From an uncultured Pseudomonadota bacterium (GTDB taxonomy: Bacteria > Babelota > Babeliae > Babelales > RVW-14): 64,000 nt of DNA. Positions 1-31,687 of this stretch are shown here, in pieces (position 1 is the first letter of the stretch; each line of letters begins with the position of its first letter). The position numbers were made by a program, and so were the translations under genes. Under the pieces are notes generated by a model that ran no database searches, had not been told where the DNA came from, and worked only from the letters and a program-made list of their open reading frames with translations. The stretch covers positions 779-64,778 of the forward strand of contig CAZBMD010000005.1 in assembly GCA_964493325.1 (NCBI GenBank), given 5' to 3'.

Positions 1-520
1 ACATTCTATCATCGGCAAGAGCCAAATTACTTCCAAGAATAATTTGGCCGTTATTCATAGCAATATCTGTATTTAAAGCACTTTGAACAGAAACTGTCAG
101 CTCACTCAAGTGATGAGTTAGATTAATGGCATCTGTATTCGTAAAAAGAGGTTGCCCTTCAAGCTTATTTCCATTACGAATAACAGTAATTTTTTGAGCA
201 AAATCGCCAGCATCAGTACGAAGCTGCTGATTTTGAGTAAGCGTAATTTGACGAGCAGCATCGCCATCATACGCACCGGTCATCAAGGCAGGAGTTCCGC
301 TCGTATTTAAAATACCACTAGAGAATAAAATAGGAGAACCAGTAATAGCACCTGTACGCTCAAGCGTCCCATTCCACCCAATAATTGGCTGATTAACGAT
401 AAACTTTGATGACCCAACTTTTATAGTGGAATTTTGATGCGAGAATGTAATAGTCGGAAAAATCGATGTCCACGTACTTGCAATAGAGATCATTATCAAC
501 AGACTAAACCGTCTACACAT
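1..520 (-). CDS. 5' part of a secreted CTM-family paralog, propeller-less subtype; the gene runs off the window start
   Basis: Absent from the ORF track because the window edge truncates it. My translation from ATG 520..518 is open to position 1: MCRRFSLLIMISIASTWTSIFPTITFSHQNSTIKVGSS... The segment 'GAYDGDAARQITL..ITVIRNGNKLEGQPLF..MNNGQIILGSNLALADD' aligns with 'GAYLPGTDNIIHL..INIKNGNNRLEGEILL..LNGGTLYLEENLSFVDG' of the 9043..10533 protein. Confidence 0.6.
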   Translation of the reverse strand, partial: MCRRFSLLIMISIASTWTSIFPTITFSHQNSTIKVGSSKFIVNQPIIGWNGTLERTGAITGSPILFSSGILNTSGTPALMTGAYDGDAARQITLTQNQQLRTDAGDFAQKITVIRNGNKLEGQPLFTNTDAINLTHHLSELTVSVQSALNTDIAMNNGQIILGSNLALADDRM

Positions 521-697
521 CTCTTCCCCTTTTACAGTTTCTATCTTAATTTTATCTGTTTATTATCATCATACAGCCAATTGCTCATGGCCGTATTTTC
601 CTACCAAGACTAAAATTGTTGATGCCTGATGGTCAATATTTTCTCAAATTGACTACGCGTTATGTTGATCTTAAGACACTTCTTCGCATAATCTTTT

Positions 698-2758
698 TTA
701 AATTAATTTTATACGCCCAAAAAGATCTAATACTGCATTCCCCAATAATCGAATGTTTAAATCAGATTTTAGGCTGATTGCTTCACCATTATTTTTTGCC
801 TCACTGCTAAACGTAACTTTATCATCAATAATAAGCGTACCCTGAGCAAGCTGTATACCGGTCCTTGTTGAATGCAAGGTGCATCCATTTAAATACAAAA
901 TTGATGTCTGATCGGGCATATACAGCAAGTTGCTACGCGCGACCGTTGGTGCATAACTAAAAGTTACGCCGTTACTCAAAAGCAATGTTGATGCAGCGTT
1001 AATAGTGTTGGTAAAGCGTGTAGCCAAGGCGAATTTATGTGCTCCGGTAATAATAACATCCTCATCAAACTGCAATGAACCACGTGAGAAAGTATAATCA
1101 GCAGCAAGCGACAAGATGCTGCTTCTTACTGTAATACTGCCATTATCAGTCATGCATCTCAAATTTGAACCGGACAATCCCTGTACTTCGATATCTTCAA
1201 GAATCAACGACCCCCCAGGGCGAACAAACATTGATGAGACACTGCTTTGAATAGTCAATCGTTTACCCCGTCCATTGATTTTGCAGTTCCCTACAAAATA
1301 GGTAGGAACGGTAAAGATCATATCTGAATTCAACAATACCGTTGCGTCTTTAAACAAAAGAGTTGGATTAGCAAGCCCAGAGATAATAACATTACGGCCA
1401 CTATCTCCTCGAACAGTATACTGCCCACTGTGTGACCAATAAGCATCATTAACACTTGTTGCTGATGCAACTGTCTCAACTAAGTTAAGCGTTTTATTAC
1501 TTTGATCAAAAAAGTAAACCTTCATGTCCGAAGAAATTCCAGAATTTGTTCCAACTAACAAGTAAGAACCTGTTTGATCCCAATGCACTGATCGAACGGC
1601 TTTAGTTTCTCCCACACGAGCTGTTTGAACTTCTCTTAAATTTTGAGGCGAAAGCGAGTGCTCATAAATACGAAGTCGCTGAGATCCTGCATTAATACCA
1701 ACAGCTACGTACGTCCCTGTTGGACTCCAATCAACATCATTAACCGTATTTCCAATCTCGGCGCTTGTGGTAATCGTAAGAGAAGTCCCGTTAAAAGAAA
1801 AGACGATAACTTCAGTTTCTCCAACCGTTGCTATACTAGAGGTTCCAATTACAAGATAATTCCCACCAGGAGCGAACGACATAGCTCCATTGCTCACCGT
1901 TCTATTGGGGTTAAGATTGAATGGTGTTTGGTCTGTTAGTATGCCCGTTGTCTGATTAAAGGAATAGACAGGCAACTCTTGAGTTGTTTGGGTGTTCCCC
2001 CCAACCAAATAATTTCCAGATGGATGCCACGCAAGCGCAGACAAAGTTGATGCGCCATAGTCTCGAGTATCGACAACAGGCATTGTTCCATTGTATAAAT
2101 TTAATTTATAAATCCGCAGCTCTTCAGTAGATCCGCCAACTCGACCAAAAGCTAAAAATAATTTTGATGGATGCCACGCAACAGCTAAAGCATGTCGCCC
2201 AATCTCGATTGATTGAGTGGTTGTCATTGTTGCACCATCAAAATAATAAACCTTAAGCTCTTGCCCTCCACCGCTGTTATTAGTTGCTGCAGCAATATAT
2301 TGATCATCAAATGACCAGTGCACGCCATTTACAGAAGAAGCTGCCACCTGAGATGCAAGAGTTGCAAGAGTCAAAGAAGATCCTGCGCCTGCATTTGGAA
2401 TTGATAATGTCGAAATATTTTTACTAAATTCAATTGAATGGTTATTTGCAAAAAATTTTCCAGCCGTTACCATGTTCAGCGTGTTACTAAAAACAAGGTC
2501 TTGCAACAGATAGAGAGAACCACCATTTATTCTCACTGCACCGGAAACAGGCTCAAAATTATCATAGGTACACGTAGTGACGTTACTCTCAAGGGTAAAA
2601 CCATTTTCAAAAATCGCATAACCAAGCATAGTATTATTTGTGTCAACAGCAGGGAATGTTGTTGGTCCTTGGCTTGAGACAACTGTTTTAGAACCAACAG
2701 ACACAGCCTCAAGACCGCTCATGCAGAACAACATAATTAAGAGATAGAATATTATCAT
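698..2758 (-). CDS. Secreted CTM-family protein: N-terminal cap, 7-blade WD40-like propeller, C-terminal CTM module
   Basis: Long ORF. I prefer ATG 2758 (MIIFYLLIMLFCMSGLEA...), which is preceded by GCAGGAGAAAAAAGGGTT, over the track start 2827, which overlaps the upstream gene. Propeller blades such as 'WHPSGNYLV', 'WSPTGTYVAVG' and 'HWDQTGSYLLVG'. CTM landmarks CKINGRGKR, VRPGG, NLRCMT, YTFSRGS, FSYAP, LNGCTLHSTRTG. Confidence 0.85.
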   Translation of the reverse strand: MIIFYLLIMLFCMSGLEAVSVGSKTVVSSQGPTTFPAVDTNNTMLGYAIFENGFTLESNVTTCTYDNFEPVSGAVRINGGSLYLLQDLVFSNTLNMVTAGKFFANNHSIEFSKNISTLSIPNAGAGSSLTLATLASQVAASSVNGVHWSFDDQYIAAATNNSGGGQELKVYYFDGATMTTTQSIEIGRHALAVAWHPSKLFLAFGRVGGSTEELRIYKLNLYNGTMPVVDTRDYGASTLSALAWHPSGNYLVGGNTQTTQELPVYSFNQTTGILTDQTPFNLNPNRTVSNGAMSFAPGGNYLVIGTSSIATVGETEVIVFSFNGTSLTITTSAEIGNTVNDVDWSPTGTYVAVGINAGSQRLRIYEHSLSPQNLREVQTARVGETKAVRSVHWDQTGSYLLVGTNSGISSDMKVYFFDQSNKTLNLVETVASATSVNDAYWSHSGQYTVRGDSGRNVIISGLANPTLLFKDATVLLNSDMIFTVPTYFVGNCKINGRGKRLTIQSSVSSMFVRPGGSLILEDIEVQGLSGSNLRCMTDNGSITVRSSILSLAADYTFSRGSLQFDEDVIITGAHKFALATRFTNTINAASTLLLSNGVTFSYAPTVARSNLLYMPDQTSILYLNGCTLHSTRTGIQLAQGTLIIDDKVTFSSEAKNNGEAISLKSDLNIRLLGNAVLDLFGRIKLI

Positions 2759-2783
2759 AACCCTTTTTTCTCCTGCACAATTC

Positions 2784-4880
2784 TTAGCCATATACCACAC
2801 GACCAAATAGTTCCAACGAAGCCCCACCTCTCACGCGAATATCTAAATTTGAATTCAGGCGCAGCGCCTCAGCATTAAATTTTGCTTCGCTGCTCATGGT
2901 CACTTTGTCATCAAGCGTCAAAATACCGTCACTCAAAGACAGCCCTGTTCGTGTTGAATGGAGCGTACATCCATTCAGATAAAGCTCTGAAGTTGCATCA
3001 GCCATGTACAGCAAATTTTGGACAGCTCTAAGCGGAGCGTAACTAAACGTCACGTCGTGATCAAAAAATAATGTTGATGCTGAAGCAATAGTGCTCGAAA
3101 GTTTTGAGGTATAATTTAATTTATTGGTTCCCGTAAGAACCACATTCTCAGCAAAAAGAAGCGACCCTTGCGAAAAAGTATACTCTCGCGCTAATGTAAG
3201 AATAGTATTCCGCAGCGTGATAGCACCATTGTTGGTCATGCACCTCAAATTCGAAGATCCTATCCCTTGAATTTCAGCATCTTCGATAGTCAATGTAGCG
3301 CCGGGTCGAACAATAAAACTTCCAGAACTCAAATTAATGCGCTTTCCTCGACCATTAATTTTACACGTGCGCCTGAAATTTATGGGAGCCAAAATGTTAA
3401 CATCGGAATCAAGAACAAGGGTAATGTCGTTAAAAACCATGGGACAAAAACCATTGATAATAGTTGAAACCGCAACCACATCGATATTGCCAAGCGTCTC
3501 GTAGCCATGAGCAAGATATTTATTGTTACGCGACCACCTAACCATCATGACTTCTCCACCAATTTCTGGTGTATGGTCGCTCAATAATCGAATAAGTTTT
3601 TTATTAATTTTATCAAAATAATAGACGTCTAATTGTCGAAGCAAAGGGTCCGCATCAAGTCCAACGGCCAGATAGTTACCTGTTCTATCCCAATGCAAGG
3701 ACCACACAATACGCGATTCAGTGATGCGTGCACCAATAATCTCGCGCAAAGTTCCTGCAACCATTTCATACATACGAAGATTCGTTGTTCCACCGTTCAA
3801 ACCAGCAGCAATGAACGTTCCTGTAGGACACCAATCAACAGCTTGTACCGTATTGCCCACATCTAAACTCGTTGTCAAAGTTAGAGATCCATTAAATGAA
3901 TACACCAGCAGTTCGCTCACGTTGGTCGTTGCATTATTCAGAGCTCCGACAGCAAGCTGATTGCCTCCAGGAGCAAAGCTCAAAGCATCACGGCTCACAT
4001 AACTTGCAGTGGTCAAATTAGTTACTGTTCCTGCAGACAGTACAGCTGATGTTGCGGGATATACAATCAGCCGACCACTTGCGCCAACAAGTCCAGTTCC
4101 CGCTATCAAGTAATTCCCTGATGGATGCCAAATAACCGCGTTGACATCGCCAACGACATTCGCACCACTGACCACCGGCAATGTTCCATTGAAAACATTA
4201 TGCTGATAGGTGATGATTTCATTGCCGGCACCAATTAAACGACCTAACGCCAAAAATCGCTGTGTTGGATGCCAGCGCACCGATTGAACTCCAAACCCAA
4301 TATCAATTGATAACGTTGAAGTCAACGTTGTTCCATCAAAGTATCCAAGGTAAAAATCAGAACCTGCAGCATTCTCTGTGCCAACCGCTATGTAATCGTC
4401 GTTAATAGACCAATCAATCGATGTAACATCAAGAATTGTCGTAAAAGATGACAAGCCCGTACGAACAACGCAGGCAAGCCCAGGAAAATCAAAATCAGAA
4501 GAGCGCTTTGCAAGCTCAAAAGCATAAGTGTTTCCGTATACACTTCCACTCGAGACAAAGGTAGCCTGACTATCAAGAACAAGATCTTGCCTTAGATAAA
4601 GCGTCCCTCCGTTAAGCGTGATTGGGCCTGATACCGGTAAATAATTATTGTAAGTACATGTTACCGTTGCGTCTTGCAAGCCAAAACCGCTGTTAAAAGC
4701 AGCAAAACCAAGCACCGTATTATTGGTATCACTGGCTGGAAACTCGATATAATTTTGTACCGAAGGAGTTGTTTTTGAACCAACAACAACCGCTTGAATG
4801 GAGACCGTGAAAATAAAAATCTGGTAAATGAGTAAGCATAAGCAGGCGATTTTCGTGCTATAGAAAAAAGTCTTAACCAT
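2784..4880 (-). CDS. Secreted CTM-family protein (cap + propeller + CTM)
   Basis: 698-aa ORF with a signal-like N-terminus (KIACLCLLIYQIFIFTVSIQA). Its start ATG lies inside ATGGTTAA, which overlaps the stop of the upstream paralog by 8 nt. Same motif set as its neighbours. Confidence 0.9.
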   Translation of the reverse strand: MVKTFFYSTKIACLCLLIYQIFIFTVSIQAVVVGSKTTPSVQNYIEFPASDTNNTVLGFAAFNSGFGLQDATVTCTYNNYLPVSGPITLNGGTLYLRQDLVLDSQATFVSSGSVYGNTYAFELAKRSSDFDFPGLACVVRTGLSSFTTILDVTSIDWSINDDYIAVGTENAAGSDFYLGYFDGTTLTSTLSIDIGFGVQSVRWHPTQRFLALGRLIGAGNEIITYQHNVFNGTLPVVSGANVVGDVNAVIWHPSGNYLIAGTGLVGASGRLIVYPATSAVLSAGTVTNLTTASYVSRDALSFAPGGNQLAVGALNNATTNVSELLVYSFNGSLTLTTSLDVGNTVQAVDWCPTGTFIAAGLNGGTTNLRMYEMVAGTLREIIGARITESRIVWSLHWDRTGNYLAVGLDADPLLRQLDVYYFDKINKKLIRLLSDHTPEIGGEVMMVRWSRNNKYLAHGYETLGNIDVVAVSTIINGFCPMVFNDITLVLDSDVNILAPINFRRTCKINGRGKRINLSSGSFIVRPGATLTIEDAEIQGIGSSNLRCMTNNGAITLRNTILTLAREYTFSQGSLLFAENVVLTGTNKLNYTSKLSSTIASASTLFFDHDVTFSYAPLRAVQNLLYMADATSELYLNGCTLHSTRTGLSLSDGILTLDDKVTMSSEAKFNAEALRLNSNLDIRVRGGASLELFGRVVYG

Positions 4881-6960
4881 AAATCACCCGACCAAACAGT
4901 TCCAACGAAGCCCCACCTCTCACACGAATATCTAAATTTGAATTCAGTCGCAGCGCTTCGGCATTAAACTTTGCCTCGCTGCTCATGGTTACTTTGTCAT
5001 CAAGCGTCAAAATGCCATCACTCAAAGACAATCCTGTTCGTGTTGAATGGAGCGTACATCCATTCAGATATAGCTCAGATGTTGCATCAGCCATGTACAG
5101 CAAATTTTTGACAGCTCTAAGCGGAGCATAACTAAACGTCACATCATGATCCAAAAATAATGTTGATGCCGATGCAATGGTACTCGACAGTTTTGAGGTA
5201 TAGTTAAATTTATTGGTTCCCGTAAGAACAACATTTTCAGCAAAAAGAAGCGACCCTTGCGAAAAAGTATATTCTCGTGCAAGCGTTACTATGCTGTTTC
5301 GTAATATTATAGCGCCATCATTTGTCATACATCTCAAATTTGAAGATCCCATCCCTTGGATTTCAGCATCTTCTATAGTCAATGTAGCCCCAGGTCGCAC
5401 AATAAAACTACCTGCAGTCAAATTAATGCGCTTTCCTCGACCATTAATTTTACACGTGCGCCTGAAATTTATGGGAGCCAAAATGTTAACATCGGAATCA
5501 AGAACAAGGGTAATGTCGTTAAAAACCATGGGACAAAATCCCTTAAAAACGCTCATCACAGTTGCAAGATCTTGTATAACATTTGTTTCATGACCAAGAG
5601 CAAGATGATTATCATTGTGAGACCACCTTACAATCATTGGTTCTCCTTCTGTAACAGGAGGAAAGTCTTTCAAGAGACGAACGAATTGTTTATTAATTTT
5701 ATCAAAATAAAAAATATCAACTTGTTTTGTTAATGAAAAAGCAAAATAACCAACTGCCAAATAATTTCCATTTTTACTCCAATGCAAAGATTGAACTATT
5801 CTAGACTCTGGTATACGCGCACTAAGAATTTCTCGCAATGCACTACCAACTATTTCATACAAACGCAAATTGGACGTTCCACCGCTCAATCCTGCGGCAA
5901 TAAAAGTTCCAGTTGGGCACCAATCTACAGATGCAACAGTATTTCCAGTGTCTAAACTTGTGGTAAGAGTCAAAGCGCCATTAAATGAATAAACCAAAAG
6001 TTCACTTATATTGGTTGTTGCATTATTAATAGCACCAACGGCAAGCATATTACCACCAGGAGAAAAACTTAGAGCATTACTACTGACAAAACTTGACGCT
6101 GGCAAATTTATCACCGTCCCTGCTGAGAGGACGGCTGACGAAGCTGGATAGACAATCAATTGACCGTTACCTCCAACAAGCCCCGTACCTGCAATTAAAA
6201 AATTTCCCGATGGATGCCAACAAACGGCATTAACATCGCCACCAACATTAGCCCCACTAACAACCGATAATGTCCCATTAAAAATCTTATGCTGGTATGT
6301 AATTATTTCGTTACCAGCATTCTGTAGTCGAGATGCTGCTAAAAAACGCTGCGTAGGGTGCCATCTTACAGATTGAAAATCTGTTCCGGCATTAATAGAC
6401 AATGTTGATGTTAAAGTCGTTCCATTAAAATAACCTAGATATAATTCTGGCCCAGATGCATTATAGGTGCTAAAACAAAGGTAATCATCGTTAAATGACC
6501 AATCTAGCGAAGTTAAATCATCTTGAACTTCAAATGAAGTCACACCCGTCTGTACAATGCAAGCAAGTCCCGGAAAATCAAAGTCTAAAGGTCGCTTGGC
6601 AAGCTCAAGCGAGTAATTATTGCCAAAGATCCTGCCGCTTGAAACAAGCTGAGCTTGGCTATCTAGAATAAGATCTTGCCGAAGGTAGAGAGTTCCGCCG
6701 TTAAGCGTAACTATTGAAGAAACAGGTAGATAATTATTATATGTACAAGACGTTGTTACATCTTGCAAACCAAAACCACTATTAAAAGAAGCAAAACCAA
6801 GAGCCGTATTATTGGTATCACTTGCTGGAAATTCAACATAATTCTGTACCGAAGGAGTTGTTTTTGAACCAACAACAACAGCAAAAACCGACGAGCCTAA
6901 AACTAAAACGTAGCTTAAAAATAATAGCGATAATTTATTTTTTTTCACAATTTTTATCAT
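4873..6960 (-). CDS. Secreted CTM-family protein (cap + propeller + CTM)
   Basis: 695-aa ORF. ATGA start/stop overlap with the upstream paralog at 6957-6960. The last 222 aa are about 96% identical to those of the 2784..4880 protein. Confidence 0.9.
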   Translation of the reverse strand: MIKIVKKNKLSLLFLSYVLVLGSSVFAVVVGSKTTPSVQNYVEFPASDTNNTALGFASFNSGFGLQDVTTSCTYNNYLPVSSIVTLNGGTLYLRQDLILDSQAQLVSSGRIFGNNYSLELAKRPLDFDFPGLACIVQTGVTSFEVQDDLTSLDWSFNDDYLCFSTYNASGPELYLGYFNGTTLTSTLSINAGTDFQSVRWHPTQRFLAASRLQNAGNEIITYQHKIFNGTLSVVSGANVGGDVNAVCWHPSGNFLIAGTGLVGGNGQLIVYPASSAVLSAGTVINLPASSFVSSNALSFSPGGNMLAVGAINNATTNISELLVYSFNGALTLTTSLDTGNTVASVDWCPTGTFIAAGLSGGTSNLRLYEIVGSALREILSARIPESRIVQSLHWSKNGNYLAVGYFAFSLTKQVDIFYFDKINKQFVRLLKDFPPVTEGEPMIVRWSHNDNHLALGHETNVIQDLATVMSVFKGFCPMVFNDITLVLDSDVNILAPINFRRTCKINGRGKRINLTAGSFIVRPGATLTIEDAEIQGMGSSNLRCMTNDGAIILRNSIVTLAREYTFSQGSLLFAENVVLTGTNKFNYTSKLSSTIASASTLFLDHDVTFSYAPLRAVKNLLYMADATSELYLNGCTLHSTRTGLSLSDGILTLDDKVTMSSEAKFNAEALRLNSNLDIRVRGGASLELFGRVIYG

Positions 6961-9026
6961 GAGTCATATCTCACTTTTCCAAACAGCTCAAGCGTCGCTC
7001 CACTGAGCACTCGAATATCAAGATCTGTATTGAGTCGCAAACTCTCTGCATTATGCTTTGCTTCACTACTCATCGTTACTTTGTTATCAAGAAATAATTT
7101 ACCCGTTGATAAATGCAAGCCAGTACGAGTTGTATGAAGCGTACAACCATTCAGATACAAAATTGATGAGAGATCTTCCATGACTAAAAGATCTTGTCGA
7201 GCTCGCGCAGGCGCATAACTAAAAGTAATACCTTGATCTAAAAACAACATTGATTGTGATGCAATGGTACTCGAAAGACGTGTTGTATAATTAAATTTAT
7301 TAGTACCGGTGATAAAAACATCTTCATCAAAAAGAATTGAGCCCAAAGAAAAAGTGTAATCTCGAGAAAGCATTAATGAGCTGTTGCGCAGCGTGATAGC
7401 AGAAGAATTTGTAAGACACCGAAGATTAAAATCACTAATATTTTCAAGCATCACATCTTCAAAAATTAGCCTTGAACCCGGACGAACAACTAATGTGCTA
7501 CCAGGGTCAAACGCCATGCGTTTACCTTGGCCGTTGATTTTGCATGATCCTTGGAAGTGCAACGTTGTTGTTACCACAATGTCACTGTTACACAAAAGCG
7601 TTGTATCTTTAAAAATCAGTGGTGCAAATTTTAATCGATTAGTTTCTTCAACGCGCAACGTAAGCGTTGGGATAAAATAAGCAAAGTAATTATTATTTCT
7701 CGACCAGCGCGACCCTTTAATATCTCCCGCAACATCAAAAGCGCGAAGCGGTGTAAGCTTTTTGGTTGTTTTATCGAAAGAAAAAAGTTCAAATTCAGGA
7801 CCAGTGCCGGTAAGTATACTAACCAAAAGATAGGTTCCTGATCGATCCCAGTGAACGGTGTGCACCGATTTTGATTCGGTCACACGAGCACTCTGAACTT
7901 CTTGAATAGTTCCACTAGAGGCATCGTACACGCGAATATTCGTTGTTCCGCCTGCAAGGCCTACCGCAATGTATGACCCTGATGGCGACCAATCAAGCGT
8001 ATTAACAGCAAGACCTATCTCGGCAGACGAGGTGAGCGTAAGAGATCCTCCGCTAAACGAGAAAATTAAAATCTCGGTACCTGCATTTACCGCGGCCGAT
8101 GCTGCAAGTTGATTATTACCTGGGCTAAAAGACATCGATGCAAAAGAACGAACTGGACTTGCAATGAAAGTTACAGGCGAACCAAGTACTCCGCTTGGAG
8201 CTGGATATGTAAGAATTGTTCCAACCGTTGTTGCAGCAACAACATAATTGGCAGGATGCCATACAACGGCGGTAATATCTCCCGTTGCAATGCTTGCCCC
8301 GCTAATAACAGGGATAGTTCCATTCCACGAGCGATGCTCATACACGATAAGTTCATTACCAGCAATAGTACTACTGCCAACAGCAAGATAGCGCAGCGTT
8401 GGATGCCAAGAAAGAGCGTTAATAGCAACAGTAGATGCAACCGAAAGAGTGTTAGTCAGGGTGTTACCATCAAAATAGGTAATGACCAATTCTGGGCCCG
8501 CGTTCACCGCATACCCACTTGCAATATATCTATTGGTCACATCCCAATCAAGCGCGTTCAGTGCACCTGTTTGCACAATACTAGCAGCAAAGTTGTAGGT
8601 CATATCTTTTTCTACAAAATTGAAATCGGTTACTTTTTGAGGCAGTACAATGGCACGGCTATTGCCTTCAATAATCCCACCGGTCATAAACGTAAGATCT
8701 GAATCTAAAATAAGGTCTTGAGCCAGTGTAAGTCGACCCCCATTGAGACGAAAAACCTCAGACACACTTTCAAAATCATTGTACGTACAGGTTGTTGTTC
8801 GGTCTTGAAGCTTGAACCCATCTTCAAATTTGGCAAAACCAAGCATTGTATTATTTGTGTCTGTTGATGGAAAAATCGTAAAAGTCTGACTGGACGGTGT
8901 TGAATTTGAGCCAACAACAACAGCTTGAACTGAGCTTGATACAATAAGCACAACGCTCATAAAAAACAAAGCTTGAACTCTTTGTTTTTTATTGAAAAAA
9001 CGAATTTTTGACCTAAAAAAATTCAT
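6957..9026 (-). CDS. Secreted CTM-family protein (cap + propeller + CTM)
   Basis: 689-aa ORF with a signal-like N-terminus (ALFFMSVVLIVSSSVQA). Blades such as 'WHPTLRYLAVG', 'WSPSGSYIAVG' and 'HWDRSGTYLLVS'. CTM landmarks CKINGQGKR, VRPGS, NLRCLT, YTFSLGS, FSYAP, LNGCTLHTTRTG. Confidence 0.9.
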   Translation of the reverse strand: MNFFRSKIRFFNKKQRVQALFFMSVVLIVSSSVQAVVVGSNSTPSSQTFTIFPSTDTNNTMLGFAKFEDGFKLQDRTTTCTYNDFESVSEVFRLNGGRLTLAQDLILDSDLTFMTGGIIEGNSRAIVLPQKVTDFNFVEKDMTYNFAASIVQTGALNALDWDVTNRYIASGYAVNAGPELVITYFDGNTLTNTLSVASTVAINALSWHPTLRYLAVGSSTIAGNELIVYEHRSWNGTIPVISGASIATGDITAVVWHPANYVVAATTVGTILTYPAPSGVLGSPVTFIASPVRSFASMSFSPGNNQLAASAAVNAGTEILIFSFSGGSLTLTSSAEIGLAVNTLDWSPSGSYIAVGLAGGTTNIRVYDASSGTIQEVQSARVTESKSVHTVHWDRSGTYLLVSILTGTGPEFELFSFDKTTKKLTPLRAFDVAGDIKGSRWSRNNNYFAYFIPTLTLRVEETNRLKFAPLIFKDTTLLCNSDIVVTTTLHFQGSCKINGQGKRMAFDPGSTLVVRPGSRLIFEDVMLENISDFNLRCLTNSSAITLRNSSLMLSRDYTFSLGSILFDEDVFITGTNKFNYTTRLSSTIASQSMLFLDQGITFSYAPARARQDLLVMEDLSSILYLNGCTLHTTRTGLHLSTGKLFLDNKVTMSSEAKHNAESLRLNTDLDIRVLSGATLELFGKVRYDS

Positions 9027-9042
9027 TACCGTCGATCCTTAC

Positions 9043-10533
9043 CTACGTTGCACTAAAAATTTCAATCGAACCGTCCAAATAGTTAGGGCCAGCTTGCAGG
9101 AGCGTTGCTGTTTGCTCAATGCGTAAACGACCCAGACCAAGATACATTGGCTGACAAAGTTTAAGCAACGATGCTGCATTAACCGTTAATGTCGACAAAG
9201 AGTTATACATTTTCCAAGATGATGGAGCTACGTTCTTGTAAATCAGATATCCAGAATTGAGGCTAAGTAAGCCTCCGGGCAATAGTTCACAGGAAAAATC
9301 TTCGCCGGCATCAGATCCAAAAGTTAGCCCCTGCTCTATAACTCTGTAGTTTACAGGGTCTCTGAGCATTTCAACGTAAACATTGGCAAGTCCCTGAACA
9401 ACAAGTTTACCGTTTTTCAGTGCCATACCAGTACTCGTTACATGAAGCGACGCACCACTGCTCATAAAAATAGACGAACTATCATTTACAAAAGCAAGGT
9501 TATCAATCTTCGGGGTTGTAAAGTCAACACTAAACGTCATATTATTAGTCAGATGTAACAGAGAGTTAGCGTTGACGGTACAGGTAGCTGTTGGTTGAAA
9601 AACAAAAGTTTGAGAGCCAATTAGATCGAGTGTTCCAATGACCTCAAACGCTCCAGTACCAAAAGTATATTCACCGCTTTGCACCAGGGCAGCATTCTGA
9701 AATATAATTTTTCCAGCATTATCAAGACAACGCAAATTTGAACCTGCAACATCCTGTAAAATAATATTTTTTAATAATAATGTAGCTCCGCGCTCAACGA
9801 CAATGTTCCCATAATTGCCTAAGTTCAGAATATTGCCATTCCCAATAATTGTGCTATTCCTACCACTAAACGTCCATGTTTGCGCAAGATTGAGAGTCGC
9901 TTTAAGTTCAATATCATTCCCGTTATCAAAATAAATTGAGCCGTTCCATGTCATCTCCTTAGCACCTAAGACAATTTTTCGTCCGTTGCACAATACCGTT
10001 CCATGACAAAGAAGCATTTGACCATCAACAAAACTCAAGTTTTCTTCTAGATAAAGGGTGCCCCCATTAAGCTCAATACTTTTTGCAAGGCTGCGCGTAA
10101 TCGCACACGTTAAGCTTGCATTTTCATCAAAGAATATGATGTTATTGCTCAATAAAATCTCGCCTTCTAAGCGATTGTTGCCATTTTTAATGTTAATTTC
10201 TTGAGCAATTTGTTTACCGGTTCCTTTAAATCGCTTATCACCATCAAGATGAATAATATTATCTGTTCCTGGTAAATAAGCTCCTACCAAAAACATTCTA
10301 TTTCCTGAGTCCTCAAAAATACCTTTATTAAATTGTATTTTTTGACCCGAAATTTCCGCGCCACTCTCCTTAGTCACATGCCCTTTGCACTCTGGAATTG
10401 TTTTTTCAAGAACTAAGCCAGCACCTTCAGCAACTCGAAATCCAGCAGTGGTACTTCTAAAATTTATTAATGCAAAGCTAGATGCATATGACATGCAAAG
10501 AGCAAGTAAAAAAATAATATTTTTTCTATTCAT
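9043..10533 (-). CDS. Secreted CTM-family protein, propeller-less subtype
   Basis: I prefer ATG 10533 (MNRKNIIFLLALCMSYASSFA), which sits 13 nt after the upstream stop and is preceded by AAAAAGGGGGGAG. 'LNGGTLYLEENL' is followed directly by a CTM-like module (IIGNGNIL, NLRCLDNAGKI, EYTFGTGA, ...LNSGYLIYKN). Confidence 0.85.
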   Translation of the reverse strand: MNRKNIIFLLALCMSYASSFALINFRSTTAGFRVAEGAGLVLEKTIPECKGHVTKESGAEISGQKIQFNKGIFEDSGNRMFLVGAYLPGTDNIIHLDGDKRFKGTGKQIAQEINIKNGNNRLEGEILLSNNIIFFDENASLTCAITRSLAKSIELNGGTLYLEENLSFVDGQMLLCHGTVLCNGRKIVLGAKEMTWNGSIYFDNGNDIELKATLNLAQTWTFSGRNSTIIGNGNILNLGNYGNIVVERGATLLLKNIILQDVAGSNLRCLDNAGKIIFQNAALVQSGEYTFGTGAFEVIGTLDLIGSQTFVFQPTATCTVNANSLLHLTNNMTFSVDFTTPKIDNLAFVNDSSSIFMSSGASLHVTSTGMALKNGKLVVQGLANVYVEMLRDPVNYRVIEQGLTFGSDAGEDFSCELLPGGLLSLNSGYLIYKNVAPSSWKMYNSLSTLTVNAASLLKLCQPMYLGLGRLRIEQTATLLQAGPNYLDGSIEIFSAT

Positions 10534-10546
10534 TACTCCCCCCTTT

Positions 10547-13500
10547 TTAAGCAAGATTTTTGTACACTAAATAACCAGAATTAAGCTCAATCCGAGATTC
10601 TGGAAAAATCTCAATCCGCAAATCATTTGTCTCGTCAAGCCCATCTCCAATAATTATTCCCTCAGCAGGATATCCTGCGCCACTAATAAAATTGCACACG
10701 CCTCGCACTTCCAAGTACCCTTTGGTCAATTGCAGGCCTGTTGACGTCGATGCGATCGACGCATTTTTCATAATTAATCTTGTTGTATCATCCGCTAATG
10801 ATAAAAGGGTACGAGACTCAGACGCAGGCTCATACGAGAAAGTAAAGTCATCTCGTAGGTATAAACTTGCTCGAGACTTAACCCTGCTTTCAGCATCTGA
10901 TTGATACAAAAACTGATAATCTCGACCGTTCATATCCATCTGATTAATGACATCAAAACTTCCAAGAGAGAAAGTGAAATTACTATCTTGAGACCAAGTA
11001 ACATTATCAAAAATCAACTTGCCAGCATTATCAATGCAATACAAACTTCCATCCAAAAGTCCATCAATTACTACATTTTTAAATCGAACACGAGACCCTC
11101 TCCCTATTGCTATTTGACCTGTAGGTCCAAAAATAAGTGAATTTCCATCCCCATTAATGGTGCAATCGCCGCTAAATGTCCACTTAGACGTAAGTTGAAG
11201 ATTTGATCGTAAAACTATAGACGCTTTGTTTGAATCCCAATCAAGAGTACTAGTACTGTATAAACTAAGACCACCAACACTGACAGATAAATTAGATAAG
11301 TTTACCTTGCCTTGGCCATTGAAAAATTGATTATCCGAAAACTGAAGAGGTTTTGTTAGCGTTACAGAGCTCTTATTCAATGATATATAACTAGACATAG
11401 CCCCGACAACATCCCATGAAAATGATGCTGATTGATTAGAACAAACAATTGGAGCAGCGATACTCCCTGGTCCACTAATAATATTTCCAGACCCCGCGAT
11501 AAGGGTTGAAAGGGGGAGCGCCCCTGTCTGTGCGGTAATTTTTCCGTTTCCATCAAGCAATGTTGTAAAAAAATTATAACGCTTTCCTGTAATTAAAAAT
11601 TCAATACCAGCAGCTGAAAAAGCACAATCTTTATATGATAAAACTGCACCAGCGCCCACTACCAAGTCCCATGGACCAGAGAACTCTACCGTTAAATTTT
11701 TAAAAGAAGCATTTTTATCAATCACAATATGAAGAGCTGGATCAATCGTTACTCTTGTTAAGCGTGTGATTGATTGAATTCCAGTCTCTGTTGTACAAGC
11801 ATAAATAAAATGCCCTTTAGGCAAATACAAACTTGCTCCAGGATCTAATTTCACACTACAATCTTCTGAACTAATACCATTACCCAAAGATAACCCATAA
11901 TGTGAATGCGTAGAGTTTATATCAAACGTTAATTTCTTATTTACCTTGACCATACCTCTCAGGATCTTCATGCCCGACGAAGTAACCGAAAAAGTCCCAG
12001 AGTCCACCTCTAACACAGATGTTGTATCTTCAAAAAATAGCGGCTCTCTTCCATTATTACGTCCAAGAACCACACCCATATCGTCATGAATTCCCCAAAT
12101 AGAACTCATTCCGATTGAACTTGTTAATGTAGATTCATAATAAAACGTACCAGTTCCGGTAAAATCATTTCTGTTAATAAAATTAAGACTACCATGAGAA
12201 AAAGAGAATGAATCATCTTGATCCCATCTTACTCCATCAAGGATCAAGGAAGCAGAATCGTCTATGCACTCAATGTTATTTCCATCAATGCCTGTGATAA
12301 AAATATTTCTAAACCTTAGCGAACTACCACTACCAATCTTTATCTTTCCTGTAGGCAGAAGAGCAAACCTCTTGCCACCTCCATCAATAATGCAATTTCC
12401 AGAAAACACCCACTCAGAAGACAGTGCAATATCAGCATTTAAATTAATTGATGATCCCTGAGCATTCCAAGATATTGAACTTGTCCAGTTCAAATCTTTT
12501 GAACCCAAAGTACAATCATACGTACCCATGATCACACTACCAGCTCCAACAAAGCCGGTATGCTGCCCAAAAACAATATTTTTTTCCAACGCAACACTTC
12601 CGCCTCCAAGCGTAATATCTGAAAAAAAGCTGCCATCAAGACCGACAGACAAGTGGGACGTTGAATCCAATAATATGGTTGGACCGGAAATATCTCCTGA
12701 TCCTAGGAAGAAATTATACGGCCCTTGAACAAGCGTCGCTGCTGGGTAATTACCCTTGACTAGGTAAAACTCACAACCTCCATAAAGAAGTGTCGCGTCT
12801 GGCGAGTATCGCAAGCCTGTGACCCTAAAATCGGCAAAAGGATAGCTAAAAAAGCAGTTGTCGTAATACAACTGTTTTCCTGGGATAAAAACAATGCTAC
12901 TGGTTAAATTGGAATACACCGAAACGTTATCACAATGAACATCTTGCTTCGAGTAAAAAACACTATTACCACTTCTGATAAATTTTACCTCTACATCGTC
13001 AGTTAAAAAATTTTCAGCGGCAACAACATCATAAATAAAATGTCCTTCATTTAGTTTTAAGACAGCACTCGGAAATAATTTGAATGTGGCATCATCTTCG
13101 GCTATCCCATTACCCAAAATAAAACCATTGGATGTTGATGTTGACTCAATATCTAAAATTACTTCTCGATCACACAAAAAGGTTCCTCTTGTAAACTGCA
13201 TGCCAGAAGCTGTAATAATAAGCGTGCAATGTTCCAAGCGTAAAACGGACGATGCATCCTCGCAAAATAACGGTTCTCGATCAAAAATTCCATTTTTTCG
13301 ACCAAAAGAAACTTGTGCTAAATCTGAAAAAAACCATGTCGAATCTGATGCCACGGTGCTCGTTAAGCCAGAAGAATAGGTAAATCTATATCGGCCTGTA
13401 ACATCAACTTCATTATGAATACGAATACTTCCTTGTGAAAAGGTATAATCATCATCTTGTACCCAACGAACCTCATCCATGATTAAAGATCCTGAGTCGT

Positions 13501-14086
13501 TTAGACAGCGAATGTTGTACCCTGATATTCCATCAACTTCAATATTTTTTAAACGCAACGATGCATTGTTATCGATTAAAATGCAACCGTCTCCGTCAAG
13601 AACAAGGCAATGTCCTCGACCATTAATCACACAGTCACCTCGAATACGCAAAGTCCCCGAGAGATTAATATCTGAATTTATAAAAAGCTTTGTATTGTCA
13701 AGAATTGTATCACTGGATGATGGTAACCCTGTAATGCTTTCACACAAATCAAGAATATGATCATTGCCTCGAATAAAACCAGGAGTAACGAGCTCCGATG
13801 GATTGTTTAGTGACAGATCAGTATCCAAAAACAACTGGCCTCCGTGTAAATTCACGTTACCCGAAACAGGAAACGCCGACCCAAAGGTACACGTTGTTGT
13901 TGCATCTTGAAGCCCAAAACCACTTTTGAACCAACCAAATGCAAGCATAGCATTGTCAGAATCAGCTGATGGAAAAACAAAATAAGGCTCAATCGATAAA
14001 ATCGACTCTGAGCCTTTTTGAACAGCAAAAATTTGTAGGGGAAATAAACAGATGAAAAGGATTAGAAAGAACTTCTTACTCACCAC
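10547..14086 (-). CDS. Giant secreted CTM-family protein with cap plus three tandem CTM-like modules
   Basis: 1179-aa ORF with a signal-like N-terminus (FFLILFICLFPLQIFA). The cap is 'FPSADSDNAMLAFGWFKSGFGLQDATTTCTF..PVSGNVNLHGGQLFL'. Three modules each contain C-x-I-[ND]-G-x-G, N-I-[RE]-C / L-Y-C, [YF]-[TS]-FS-x-GS and a G-[HY]-[FL]-[IV]-Y end. Confidence 0.9.
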   Translation of the reverse strand: MVSKKFFLILFICLFPLQIFAVQKGSESILSIEPYFVFPSADSDNAMLAFGWFKSGFGLQDATTTCTFGSAFPVSGNVNLHGGQLFLDTDLSLNNPSELVTPGFIRGNDHILDLCESITGLPSSSDTILDNTKLFINSDINLSGTLRIRGDCVINGRGHCLVLDGDGCILIDNNASLRLKNIEVDGISGYNIRCLNDSGSLIMDEVRWVQDDDYTFSQGSIRIHNEVDVTGRYRFTYSSGLTSTVASDSTWFFSDLAQVSFGRKNGIFDREPLFCEDASSVLRLEHCTLIITASGMQFTRGTFLCDREVILDIESTSTSNGFILGNGIAEDDATFKLFPSAVLKLNEGHFIYDVVAAENFLTDDVEVKFIRSGNSVFYSKQDVHCDNVSVYSNLTSSIVFIPGKQLYYDNCFFSYPFADFRVTGLRYSPDATLLYGGCEFYLVKGNYPAATLVQGPYNFFLGSGDISGPTILLDSTSHLSVGLDGSFFSDITLGGGSVALEKNIVFGQHTGFVGAGSVIMGTYDCTLGSKDLNWTSSISWNAQGSSINLNADIALSSEWVFSGNCIIDGGGKRFALLPTGKIKIGSGSSLRFRNIFITGIDGNNIECIDDSASLILDGVRWDQDDSFSFSHGSLNFINRNDFTGTGTFYYESTLTSSIGMSSIWGIHDDMGVVLGRNNGREPLFFEDTTSVLEVDSGTFSVTSSGMKILRGMVKVNKKLTFDINSTHSHYGLSLGNGISSEDCSVKLDPGASLYLPKGHFIYACTTETGIQSITRLTRVTIDPALHIVIDKNASFKNLTVEFSGPWDLVVGAGAVLSYKDCAFSAAGIEFLITGKRYNFFTTLLDGNGKITAQTGALPLSTLIAGSGNIISGPGSIAAPIVCSNQSASFSWDVVGAMSSYISLNKSSVTLTKPLQFSDNQFFNGQGKVNLSNLSVSVGGLSLYSTSTLDWDSNKASIVLRSNLQLTSKWTFSGDCTINGDGNSLIFGPTGQIAIGRGSRVRFKNVVIDGLLDGSLYCIDNAGKLIFDNVTWSQDSNFTFSLGSFDVINQMDMNGRDYQFLYQSDAESRVKSRASLYLRDDFTFSYEPASESRTLLSLADDTTRLIMKNASIASTSTGLQLTKGYLEVRGVCNFISGAGYPAEGIIIGDGLDETNDLRIEIFPESRIELNSGYLVYKNLA

Positions 14087-14348
14087 TCAACTCCCTTTTT
14101 TATGTCTTGCATTATCGTGACACCACTTTCAAATGCGTGATGAGGTGCCGTATAGACACTACACACCTGTAGTTGGTGTTACTCTCCTTAATTTCAATCG
14201 TATATCGTTTCAAAAAACAATCAAGCTTTAAAATTTGATCATTAATTACACCAAGTTTGCATTGTCTTTTTCAACAGATGTGAGAAAATCAACGAATCTT
14301 TTTCTGTTGATCACCTTTACACAACATCTTTCGATTGTTCAATGAATC

Positions 14349-15614
14349 ATGAATTTTAAAAAAATTACTCTGTTGAGTACACTTCTTATAGGATGCACAC
14401 TGATAGTTGTCTGTTATATTCTTTTTACTCAAGGCAATCTTAAATTTGTTAATTTTGAAACAGCAACAAAAAATCAATCAGAAGGACCTCGTGTTCTTTT
14501 TGTTCATGTTACTCAAGGATCTGGCGGAGCAGAAACGCACAGCATAGCTCTTTATAAAGAAGCTCTGTCACACGGAATGAATGCAACTATGCTTGTCCAA
14601 AAAAATTCTTTTATCCAACAAGAACTCAAGCAGTTTCAAATTCCACACTACGAAACATCAGCTGCATCATTCATAAAAATGAGCAAACTTTACAAATATA
14701 TTCTCACAAAAAATATTCAAGCAATTCATAAAAAACAACCAATTGATATCGTACAATGCAATACCGAACGAGAAACATATGCTGCAAAAAAGGCTCAGCT
14801 TTATTACCCAATAAAAGTCATCTGGGTTCGGCACAATGAAGAGCTTCCTCGCTGCATGCAAGTCCTTAAAAATCTCAATGGCATCATTGCAGTCAGCCCA
14901 CAAATTGAACAGTTACTTACTCACGCAAACAAACAGTACAAACTCGATATTGATGAGATAAGAACTATCTACCCATTTTTTAATCAAGAACGCCTTCTTT
15001 CATACAATCCTCAAGAATCCAGAAAAATTTTTTTTCAAAAATATTTTAATCTTTCGGTTGATAACAACACTGTCTTACTGTGCATGGTTGCCAATCTATA
15101 CTCGAACATTGATCACAAAAATCATCCGCTTCTTCTCAAGGCCACAGCAAAGCTCATTCATGAAAAACAAAAAAATATCCAGGTTCTGTTGGTTGGTGAT
15201 GGCCGCGCTCGCTCAGAATTAGAAAAACAGTGCTCGGACTTAAACATCTCAAAATATGTTCATTTTCTTGGATTTACCGCGCATGTTCCCGCAATCCTCT
15301 ATCACTCAGATATTAAAGTTCTTTCGTCACGCAGCGAAGGACAAGCAATCGCCCTTACCGAAGCTGCATTCATGCAAAAACCGCTCATTGCAGCAACTGG
15401 AACAAGCGCTGTAAATATAGTCATTGATGGTAAAACAGGATACCTTTTTAGAAATAATAATGCTGATGATTTGGCAGAAAAAATTGAAATCCTAGTTGAT
15501 AATCCTCTACTTCGTATACAAATGGGAAAAGCAGCTCAAGATCTTGCTTTTAAAGAATTTGCAAATGCCAGCAAATTAAAAAAGCTGAAAAAATTCTATC
15601 AAAGACTGAAATGA
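14349..15614 (+). CDS. Glycosyltransferase, GT4 / group-1 family, with an N-terminal TM segment
   Basis: 421-aa ORF. The C-terminal half has the GT-B group-1 pattern (..LLVGDGRARSELE..HFLGF..SSRSEGQAIALTEAAFMQKPLIAT....DGKTGYLF). Confidence 0.75.
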   Translation: MNFKKITLLSTLLIGCTLIVVCYILFTQGNLKFVNFETATKNQSEGPRVLFVHVTQGSGGAETHSIALYKEALSHGMNATMLVQKNSFIQQELKQFQIPHYETSAASFIKMSKLYKYILTKNIQAIHKKQPIDIVQCNTERETYAAKKAQLYYPIKVIWVRHNEELPRCMQVLKNLNGIIAVSPQIEQLLTHANKQYKLDIDEIRTIYPFFNQERLLSYNPQESRKIFFQKYFNLSVDNNTVLLCMVANLYSNIDHKNHPLLLKATAKLIHEKQKNIQVLLVGDGRARSELEKQCSDLNISKYVHFLGFTAHVPAILYHSDIKVLSSRSEGQAIALTEAAFMQKPLIAATGTSAVNIVIDGKTGYLFRNNNADDLAEKIEILVDNPLLRIQMGKAAQDLAFKEFANASKLKKLKKFYQRLK

Positions 15615-17804: not shown

Positions 17805-17844
17805 AATACTCCTTTTTTGGCTACAACTAAAAATAGAACATTTT

Positions 17845-18837
17845 TTAAGCACCATTCAATAATGCAAAAAGCTCATTAATTTGTTTCGCTTGAGTTATAA
17901 ACTTATCGTCATACAGGGAAATTACATTGCGCAGAGATTTAAGCTGTTCTTGAAGCTCTGCCAACTGCTCCTTTTGCTGCAAATATTCATTAAGAATAAG
18001 AACAGGTATTTCATCATATCTTACAGAAAGAGGATTTCCCTCTTCATCATATACGGCAAGTTCAGGAAAATTTTGCGCAACTTCCTCGGCAATCAAACCA
18101 TATTGAATTATTTTTTTAGGATCATTTTTGTAGACAAAAGCAACAGGCCGCAGCTTTGTTAAGTTATTGCTTCGAGTATAAATATCCTGAATATCATCCT
18201 TGTAACGACGAGAAGATAGGATAGTACCAAGCTTACCATCTGAAGAAATAACAACAGCCAAACTGGAAAGAATATCCGTTGTAGCTTTCCCGGCAATACC
18301 TGCAATAAAACATCCCGTATGGGTGATAGTTGAACCAAACCGCATAACATTATCCTCAGCTCCAGCGCCATTATTTCCAAGGTAAATATTATTACTGCCC
18401 AACAATAATGAAGATCCAGCATTATAACCAATTGCCGTATTTTCAGTACCGGTAATTAAGTTATTCAAACTATTTGCTCCAATACCAACGTTCGTTGTTA
18501 GGTTGTCAACATCTTCCAATACCAGACTGCCTACTCCCAAGTGACCTTCACTATTGATAACAACCGGAGAACCGCTTATCACGTTGGCAGCTGTTGAAGG
18601 AAGAGTAACCAATCCCAATATAGTGGCAGAACCCGTCATACGAATATCGGCATTATGATCAGCATTTACTTTGATAAATGAATCGTTAAGCACTCTGAGA
18701 TTTTCGTCCTGTGTCACGATATAAAATTGATCGCTCACATGCTCTATTGCGTAAAGATATCCATTTGGAATAAAGAAAATTATAAAAATCTTGAAAGAAA
18801 AAAGAATACTCCTGCTCAATCGGTTTATGTTCGTCAC
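17845..18837 (-). CDS. Tail-fibre-like protein with a C-terminal Peptidase_S74 chaperone domain (short paralog)
   Basis: 330-aa ORF with 'GKLGTIL-SSRRYKDDIQDI..LRPVAFVYKND..YGLIAEEVAQNFPELAVYD..LSVRYDEIPVLILNE'. The N-terminus is hydrophobic. Confidence 0.85.
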   Translation of the reverse strand: MTNINRLSRSILFSFKIFIIFFIPNGYLYAIEHVSDQFYIVTQDENLRVLNDSFIKVNADHNADIRMTGSATILGLVTLPSTAANVISGSPVVINSEGHLGVGSLVLEDVDNLTTNVGIGANSLNNLITGTENTAIGYNAGSSLLLGSNNIYLGNNGAGAEDNVMRFGSTITHTGCFIAGIAGKATTDILSSLAVVISSDGKLGTILSSRRYKDDIQDIYTRSNNLTKLRPVAFVYKNDPKKIIQYGLIAEEVAQNFPELAVYDEEGNPLSVRYDEIPVLILNEYLQQKEQLAELQEQLKSLRNVISLYDDKFITQAKQINELFALLNGA

Positions 18838-30021: not shown

Positions 30022-30041
30022 AGCTTAAGGAGAGCGATTCT

Positions 30042-31685: not shown

Positions 31686-31687
31686 TC

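Follow-up and report, generated by a model that had tools for sequence, protein, structure and literature searches.

A tandem gene array of Dependentiae encoding predicted Sec-exported beta-helix proteins, four of them with a seven-bladed WD40 propeller

The passengers of the self-associating autotransporters Ag43, AIDA-I and TibA, of the SPATE proteins, of pertactin and of Hap have a signal peptide followed by a long right-handed beta-helix rod, and their role is that of adhesins. The exoproteins of two-partner secretion (TPS) systems, such as FHA/FhaB and EtpA, form very long beta-helix fibres and carry a conserved element right after the signal peptide, and the chlamydial Pmp proteins make up a tandem paralogous family of predicted beta-helical, Sec-exported proteins in an obligate intracellular bacterium. 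RTX adhesins are substrates of the type I secretion system that have no N-terminal signal peptide and whose stalks consist of Ig-like repeats; in the portion of the source available, their ligand-binding domains are described as emerging from 'split' domains (PMC12077191). The pectate-lyase-like (PbH1) superfamily, to which PL6 lyases and phage tailspikes belong, consists of right-handed beta-helix proteins with a rung of ~22 residues. Here we analyze an array of seven genes for proteins of apparently similar design in a 64,000-nucleotide stretch of DNA (hereafter, the window) from an uncultured bacterium placed by GTDB in the Babelota (assembly GCA_964493325.1, contig CAZBMD010000005.1, positions 779 to 64,778). 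The phylum Dependentiae (TM6), from which all named homologues of these proteins come, is widespread, and its members are obligate parasites of protists. The window itself is from this phylum: its RuvB is 72-78% identical to named Babeliales and Dependentiae proteins, the best named relatives, and 96% identical to one in a JGI metagenome.

The array consists of seven co-directional minus-strand open reading frames (ORFs), P0 to P6, which fill positions 1-14086 of the window (Table 1). An initial annotation, made from the DNA letters alone, had described this array and its junctions, and ORF calls and a check of each junction reproduce them exactly, save for some doubt about P1. The P4/P3 junction is an ATGA overlap at 6957-6960 and the P3/P2 junction is an 8-nt overlap, ATGGTTAA, at 4873-4880. 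A 13-nt spacer, AAAGGGGGGAGTA (10534-10546), separates P6 from P5 ahead of the P5 ATG at 10533, and the ribosome-binding region of P5 contains a G6 tract. Gaps of 16 nt (9027-9042) and 177 nt (521-697) lie between P5 and P4 and between P1 and P0, respectively, and GGGGAAGAG precedes the P0 start codon (ATG 518-520). The doubt concerns the 25-nt gap that had been assigned to the P2/P1 junction. This gap results if P1 starts at ATG 2758, whereas a start at ATG 2791 gives a better charged n-region and a second 8-nt overlap, ATGGCTAA (2784-2791). That overlap is homologous to ATGGTTAA and has the identical start/stop arrangement, which suggests that the junction was duplicated together with the module. 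Promoter-like and terminator-like sites are no commoner in the window than in shuffled sequence and none marks an array junction, so we infer co-transcription from gene spacing. The sole long gap upstream of the co-directional run, 262 nt between P6 and a divergent glycosyltransferase gene, is the likely promoter region of the array. An Rfam scan of the window returned just two tRNAs, both distant from the array.

All of these genes share a cysteine-marked module (CTM) of ~220 amino acids, apart from P0, of which the window holds only the first 173 codons. Eight full copies within the array, three of them in P6, can be aligned from end to end, and each matches a hidden Markov model (HMM) built from the set at E 1e-88 to 1e-98, so the shared module and the three-module member of the initial annotation both proved real. 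When the CTM HMM was run over the whole window, the only match beyond the array was a ninth copy at residues 471-689 of P7 (E 1e-57). An eighth family member thus lies outside the range given initially. In P7, ~300 amino acids of short 'SNALLxLTxN' tandem repeats precede the module. The DNA encoding this 'SNALLxLTxN...CC' head (27297-27964) is itself tandemly repeated, with one period of 141 nt (2.2 copies with 92% matches) and another of 33 nt, and the repeat copy number is the same in a strain that is 97.8% identical in DNA, in which P7 differs by a single residue.

Upstream of the module, an HMM of the 'cap' matches P1-P4 and P6 at E 1e-29 to 1e-44. In P5 it matches only weakly (E 1e-5, residues 119-202, just upstream of the module), and P5 has its own N-terminal region of ~180 amino acids instead of the canonical cap motif. 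Thus, the statement that every complete member carries the cap does not hold for P5. The cap HMM also matches internal units of P6-type proteins at other loci, and the linkers between the CTMs of P6 are homologous to the first half-unit. Since the N-terminal regions of P5 and P0 are in turn homologous to the inter-module linkers of P6-type proteins (E down to 1e-10), cap and CTM, which had been treated as separate parts, together make up a single repeating unit of ~330-410 amino acids, the cap being its first half and the CTM its second; in homologues this unit is concatenated up to 14 times. P5 and P0 have a divergent first half in place of the canonical cap. When 506 copies of the CTM are compared, conservation falls on Gly, Cys, Phe/Tyr, Ser/Thr and two Asp positions but on none with Lys, Arg, His or Glu. 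This speaks for a scaffold with a structural role and against a lyase, a hydrolase or another catalytic role.

Among the complete members in the window, P5 has an extension after its last module, at residues 437-496 (the C-terminus of P0 lies outside the window). This extension of ~60 amino acids, with the consensus Y.N..S..M.N..S.L...L.L.Q.L.LG.G...A.GK.L.GSV, is conserved in 94 of 179 family representatives and looks like extra capping rungs. We considered it as a sorting signal and rejected this, since it neither ends in a conserved aromatic residue nor matches a Pfam family.

We used AlphaFold2 models of two members to assess their fold. The model of P2 (26-sequence alignment, mean predicted local-distance difference test score (pLDDT) 85.2) begins with a helix corresponding to the signal peptide, followed by twelve short cap strands, 28 strands at residues 136-478 and short strands to the last residue. 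The only regions of low confidence are two linkers (residues 131-150 and 471-480), as would fit a domain inserted through two adjacent connections. The 28 strands of the middle domain amount to seven blades of four strands each. In a Foldseek search this domain matches the seven-bladed propellers Gbeta, TLE1 and WDR91 (E ~1e-13, template-modelling (TM) scores 0.73-0.80), and the Pfam WD40 family PF00400 scores 44.5, 48.1, 44.8 and 32.8 bits in P1, P2, P3 and P4, respectively, against a cut-off of 27. The insert in P1-P4 is thus a seven-bladed WD40 propeller, as had been noted initially for four members.

The model of P6 (30 orthologues in the alignment, mean pLDDT 91.5) is all-beta, with 57% strand and 3% helix, and remains a beta-helix to its last residue. 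Its strands recur with periods of 7-8 and 21-22 residues, the signature of three-stranded rungs. Foldseek searches of PDB and viral structures with this model return beta-helix proteins only, all at low TM scores; the best match is Ag43 (7koh, E 1e-3), and the others include PL6 alginate lyases, Hap, Pet, EspC, TibA, pertactin, EtpA, phage tailspikes and giant-virus beta-helical fibre proteins. The models therefore place the scaffold in the beta-solenoid fold class, as proposed initially, although no solved structure is closely related. If a rung takes 21.5 residues and rises 0.48 nm, each unit would measure ~7 nm, P6 ~25 nm and the longest members of the family, described below, at least 100 nm.

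The N-termini of P0-P6 have a charged n-region or hydrophobic core and then an A-x-A-type site right before VVVGS, VQKGS or LINF (for example, xQA|VVVGS, IFA|VQKGS and SFA|LINF). A signal-peptide-like N-terminus, noted initially for the complete array members, was recognized heuristically in every family member in the window, and in 146 of 164 full-length family representatives. A transmembrane-like segment beyond the signal peptide is present in one of 179 representatives, and by inspection none of the seven N-termini contains a lipobox.

The array belongs to a large family. An exhaustive profile search returned 2,668 cluster representatives (50% identity) at E <= 1e-3, of which 1,567 reach E <= 1e-30. 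Lengths step by ~410 amino acids (~350, 830-850, 1180-1260, 1650-1670, 2000-2090, 2495, 3366 and up to 4562), the longest cluster member has 5208, and 179 family sequences carry between 1 and 14 full modules each. A separate word-indexed search found 28 relatives, those with names coming from 'Candidatus Babeliales' or TM6. All named members are from Dependentiae, TM6 or Babeliales, as the suggestion of a lineage-specific system had implied. Two metagenome-assembled genome (MAG) labels differ ('Pseudomonadota' and 'Methylophilaceae'), but the bins that bear them are short or unrefined. Judged by its named members, the family is restricted to Dependentiae. A scan of GTDB with a narrower alignment located 6 loci, a pattern-limited figure that is no census. 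Close relatives of the window itself also exist: the P4 CTM is 100% identical to a fragment, P0001, in a JGI metagenome, P2 occurs on a contig of 4.6 kb with 99.94% identity to the window (exact look-ups of P1 and P4 gave no match), and a contig of the strain with the 96%-identical RuvB is syntenic with the window at 97.8% DNA identity and appears to end about where the window begins.

The member types of the array recur elsewhere. A propeller like those of the window (E 1e-18 to 1e-99) is found in 22 representatives, including proteins of 1175-3769 amino acids, always at the cap/CTM junction of the first unit (residues ~120-480), and the nearest relatives of this propeller in 5.8 billion sequences are fragments of the same family. 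The family as a whole consists of non-catalytic beta-helix proteins with a unit that can be concatenated, and the propeller in the first unit marks one conserved subfamily. P6 has 30 orthologues of 1175-1270 amino acids at 28-45% identity. The orthologues of P0 (phmmer, E 1e-26 to 1e-57) are the N-termini of a 2842-aa gene product at locus L001, a 1399-aa one at L003, 2015- and 2548-aa ones at L009 and the 5208-aa P0177, so that P0 is most likely the start of a giant multi-unit protein.

At L001 the array encodes, in this order, proteins of 3359 aa, 1229 aa (P6-type), 506 aa (P5-type) and 350 aa (single-unit), then several propeller types and last the P0-type giant. The arrays of L005 and L006 have propeller and single-unit members and then a P0-type gene, and that of L007 has single-unit, propeller, P6 and P5 types. 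L008/L009 (JABCZU010000005.1, 40.9-76.8 kb) contains at least 13 family genes, including those for proteins of 1353-2548 amino acids, over at least ~36 kb of one Dependentiae MAG contig, an array far bigger than that of the window. The same member types and order are found at L001, L003/8/9, L005, L006 and L007, and on these comparisons the order reads: three-unit type, P5 type, single-unit and propeller types, giant. Given these shared arrays and the P6-type orthologous group, the locus is a conserved set of differentiated components rather than a recent burst of redundant copies.

Within the window, pairwise identity among P1-P4 rises from 34-44% in the propeller to 46-53% in the cap and 54-61% in the module. 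The ratio of nonsynonymous to synonymous substitution rates (dN/dS) is below 1 wherever it can be estimated, at 0.24-0.46 for the propeller versus 0.06-0.24 for the scaffold, with dS saturated in some comparisons. P2 and P3 are 77% identical overall. In windows of 30 residues, their nucleotide identity reaches 100% at residues 484-513 and ~90% at 34-63 and 574-693, over a background of 62-77% in which third positions are saturated. These patches over a saturated background indicate gene conversion confined to the scaffold (cap and CTM). The pattern fits a homogenised scaffold with diverging heads and does not fit rapid antigenic variation. Taken with the three head types in the window (propeller, P5/P0-type N-terminus and short tandem repeats), it agrees with the constant scaffold and variable heads of the initial annotation.

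The design of these proteins appears to be like that of beta-helix adhesins, yet the features that define autotransporter passengers, TPS exoproteins and Pmps are each absent. Neither the cap nor the CTM matches any Pfam or NCBIfam family, and the best PDB sequence matches in profile searches have E-values of 0.097 and 2.6, in keeping with the earlier failure to place the module in a named family. Unlike autotransporter passengers, the array proteins have a concatenated unit of ~400 amino acids and an inserted WD40 propeller, show no sequence similarity to the passengers (structural TM scores are below 0.3), and lack the 12-stranded C-terminal barrel translocator: PF03797 has no Pfam or NCBIfam match in the window proteins and no Pfam match in the giants. 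EtpA is among the weak structural matches; however, the TPS domain PF05860 has no Pfam match, the NPN[LG] motif (NPNL/NPNG) does not occur, and no TpsB/Omp85 partner is encoded by the annotated ORFs of the window or by neighbours of the arrays at L005, L007 and L010. The likeness to RTX adhesins (PMC12077191, in the part available) lies in a binding domain spliced into a stalk, here putatively a propeller between the halves of the first beta-helix unit, but GGxGxD has a count of zero and, unlike type I substrates, the array proteins have a signal-peptide-like N-terminus. LPxTG is likewise absent, and the type IX secretion C-terminal domain has no Pfam or NCBIfam match. The initial annotation had excluded Pmp repeats, LPXTG, an autotransporter barrel and this last domain, and these searches bear it out. 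In full-text searches and in the accessible parts of Dependentiae genome papers, no description of this protein family was found.

The interpretation that we favor, at a probability of roughly 55%, is that these are extracellular or cell-surface beta-helix fibres or adhesin-like proteins that contact the protist host by way of binding heads on stalks. The array products would be Sec-exported as non-enzymatic right-handed beta-helix proteins, in which each unit of ~330-410 amino acids, with the cap or its divergent equivalent as first half and the CTM as second, would form one rod segment. In P1-P4 the propeller would interrupt the N-terminal unit at the loop that joins its two halves, giving a binding head on a stalk. 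After Sec export, the proteins could be released or displayed via the type II secretion system, and the heads of the fibres would bind structures of the protist host. Type II secretion is the only such system reported in this phylum: according to two Dependentiae genome papers, Babela has no other detected secretion system, and nearly all of the compared TM6 genomes encode it (PMC4378268, PMC4776705); such papers likewise report, in the parts available, very many signal-peptide proteins without known function (PMC4378268, PMC4776705, PMC6561590). Surface display and host recognition would follow by analogy with the beta-helix adhesins discussed above.

Several observations weigh against this interpretation. 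The structural matches are weak (best E 1e-3, TM scores below 0.3), and the predicted TM scores of the models are 0.54-0.66. The right-handed sense of the helix, an unbroken solenoid from one unit to the next and the placement of the propeller are presumptive, and signal peptides were called heuristically, by inspection of n-, h- and c-regions and by hydropathy. Neither the window nor seven related loci nor the giants yielded an anchor, beta-barrel, lipobox, sorting motif or translocator gene, so surface attachment is conjectural. A periplasmic location would also be compatible with the data. Finally, WD40 is typically an intracellular eukaryotic interaction module, and effectors released inside the host would be equally compatible with its presence.

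The last point leads to the strongest competitor, to which we assign clearly less probability, namely that the proteins are soluble effectors released by type II secretion or outer-membrane vesicles into the host vacuole or cytosol, where the heads would bind host proteins and the beta-helix would act as a stable carrier. The putative signal peptides, the lack of any anchor and the eukaryote-like character of WD40 are all in its favor, and a host-side action of secreted repeat proteins is proposed in the Babela and Chromulinavorax papers (PMC4378268, PMC6561590). However, graded stalks of up to 14 units and 5208 amino acids in conserved arrays of several types suit fibres better than diffusible effectors, and the propeller, whose closest relatives all lie inside the family, gives no sign of recent eukaryotic acquisition.

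The interpretation as surface fibres can also be extended to a more speculative scheme that we consider unlikely. The locus might encode a Dependentiae-specific multi-component fibre whose distinct subunit types (three-unit, P5-type, single-unit and propeller-headed proteins, plus the giant) dock head-to-tail through an interface that is covalent in the giants. The resulting WD40-tipped filaments would be exported by a route without a known translocator signature and would mediate host attachment or uptake.

That the proteins never leave the cell, and instead polymerise or form a bactofilin-like scaffold in the periplasm or envelope, seems improbable to us. No outer-membrane translocation or anchoring device was identified, as this explanation would have it, and 5 of 30 orthologues give a weak, sub-threshold echo of Bactofilin. 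However, bactofilins are cytoplasmic proteins of ~100 amino acids, rods of 25-100 nm with propeller heads would be wider than the usual periplasm, and the Pfam echoes fall far under threshold.

More doubtful still is a role as polysaccharide-active beta-helix enzymes (lyases, hydrolases or depolymerases) acting on host or prey glycans. The fold class is shared with PL6 and pectate lyases and with phage depolymerases, the PDB sequence match at E 0.097 is Jun a 1, an allergen of the pectate-lyase fold, and Pectate_lyase_5 gives sub-threshold matches in 6 of 30 orthologues (E 1e-3 at best). One homologue also has a precomputed Beta_helix tag (PF13229), and together the weak echoes of Pectate_lyase_5, Bactofilin and Beta_helix agree with the beta-helix fold class. 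Against this, every sequence match is below the family threshold, the window proteins have no match to Pfam Beta_helix or Pectate_lyase at E <= 1, no acidic or basic catalytic residue is conserved across the 506 modules, and tandem concatenation is atypical for such enzymes.

Least credible of all are Pmp-like autotransporter adhesins for antigenic or phase variation, for although the tandem paralogs, obligate intracellular lineage, signal peptide, beta-helix, G6 tract of P5 and a PMP middle-domain match in P5 alone (PF07548, ChlamPMP_M; E 0.034, 14.6 bits versus a 25-bit cut-off, hence sub-threshold) recall Pmps, GGA[ILV] occurs 0 times in P1-P7, FxxN is at chance level (1-5 per protein), the repeat family PF02415 has no Pfam match, there is no barrel and the modelled beta-helix runs on to the final residue, the member types have orthologues in other genomes, dN/dS is below 1 where estimable (some dS being saturated), and P7 differs by one residue between the 97.8%-identical strains.

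The neighbourhood of the array in the window is envelope-related (Table 1), which is in favor of the interpretation as surface fibres. Next to the array lie a gene for a family 4 glycosyltransferase (GT4) and two for fibre-like proteins with a C-terminal Peptidase_S74 chaperone domain, and farther along are GT9 heptosyltransferases and a TolC-like OEP protein. The fibre-like proteins contain G-N-x-A-x-G-type repeats, and with their endosialidase intramolecular chaperone a module like those of phage tail fibres is encoded on a bacterial chromosome. In L007 the array again occurs together with tandem GT4 genes and an S74 protein (homologue at 8162-8983), and by this recurrence the GT4 and S74 genes may be linked to the array. 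Genes for TpsB/Omp85, type II secretion or other translocators were found neither in the window nor beside the arrays of related loci. We also considered the glycosyltransferases as partners of the array. Glycosylation by a TibC/Aah-like heptosyltransferase is unsupported, the GT9 protein having no PDB relative at E <= 0.01, and so is a specific role of the GT4 protein, which matches only generic GT4 enzymes (TarM, PglH-like).

Other genes of the window are of separate interest. Three tandem paralogs, candidates for enzymes active on host membranes, match the PLA2_B lysophospholipase catalytic domain of eukaryote type at E 1e-24 to 1e-31 and are conserved in L011, the 97.8%-identical strain. 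Two proteins have a Methyltransf_FA (farnesoic acid O-methyltransferase) domain and one has a Tectonin domain, both of which are better known from eukaryotes. A 506-aa ORF with an internal hydrophobic segment has no Pfam match, and ~1.5 kb carrying it is absent from the otherwise collinear strain (L011 1389-1704), a strain-level indel. Large ORFs of 1037, 636 and 340 amino acids have no significant Pfam match.

Table 1. Array members and other features of the window; coordinates are window positions, and signal peptides are as judged heuristically.
Feature	Coordinates	Strand	Content
P0	1-520	-	First 173 codons, cut by window edge; signal peptide, P0-type first half-unit
P1	698-2791 or 698-2758	-	Signal peptide, cap, WD40 propeller (~1358-2395), CTM (701-1360)
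P2	2784-4880	-	698 aa; signal peptide, cap (4476-4790), 7-bladed WD40 propeller (3441-4475), CTM (2787-3440)
P3	4873-6960	-	695 aa; P2-like architecture; propeller (~5530-6570), CTM (4876-5529)
P4	6957-9026	-	689 aa; P2-like architecture; propeller (~7617-8612), CTM (6960-7619)
P5	9043-10533	-	496 aa from ATG 10533; signal peptide, divergent first half-unit, CTM (9226-9939), C-terminal extension of ~60 aa (~9046-9225; residues 437-496 at 9046-9225)
P6	10547-14086	-	1179 aa; signal peptide, cap, three units; CTMs (13019-13711, 11789-12478, 10550-11248)
Intergenic region	14087-14348		262 nt between P6 and the divergent GT4 gene
GT4 glycosyltransferase	14349-15614	+	Pfam; next to array
Fibre-like proteins (two)	15657-17855, 17845-18837	-	C-terminal Peptidase_S74 chaperone domain (Pfam); next to array
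GT9 protein	19345-20475		Heptosyltransferase family
P7	26246-28306	-	Eighth family gene, outside 1-14086; signal peptide, P0020-22-like N-terminus, tandem repeats, partial unit and full CTM, together at 26246-28285
PLA2_B paralogs (three)	28585-33316	+	Eukaryote-type lysophospholipase catalytic domain
506-aa ORF	43958-45478	+	No Pfam match
Methyltransf_FA proteins (two)	48921-50444, 61745-63994	-	Farnesoic acid O-methyltransferase domain
340-aa ORF	50476-51498	-	No significant Pfam match
1037-aa ORF	51509-54622	-	No significant Pfam match
636-aa ORF	58808-60718	-	No significant Pfam match
Tectonin protein	60778-61716	-	Tectonin domain

The secreted beta-solenoid adhesin-like protein is a kind already known. 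What is new here is a large unannotated family, absent from domain databases, of ~2,700 clusters at 50% identity and proteins of up to 5,208 amino acids, with a WD40 propeller spliced into a beta-helix unit and no recognisable outer-membrane export or anchoring device. An HMM of the family can be used to annotate thousands of 'hypothetical' proteins, and the family may serve as a test case for the exit of beta-helix fibres from a diderm cell when neither an autotransporter nor a TPS partner is present. To our knowledge, almost no molecular biology has been established for the Dependentiae, including how they attach to and enter their hosts; this family provides concrete candidates for their host-contact structures.

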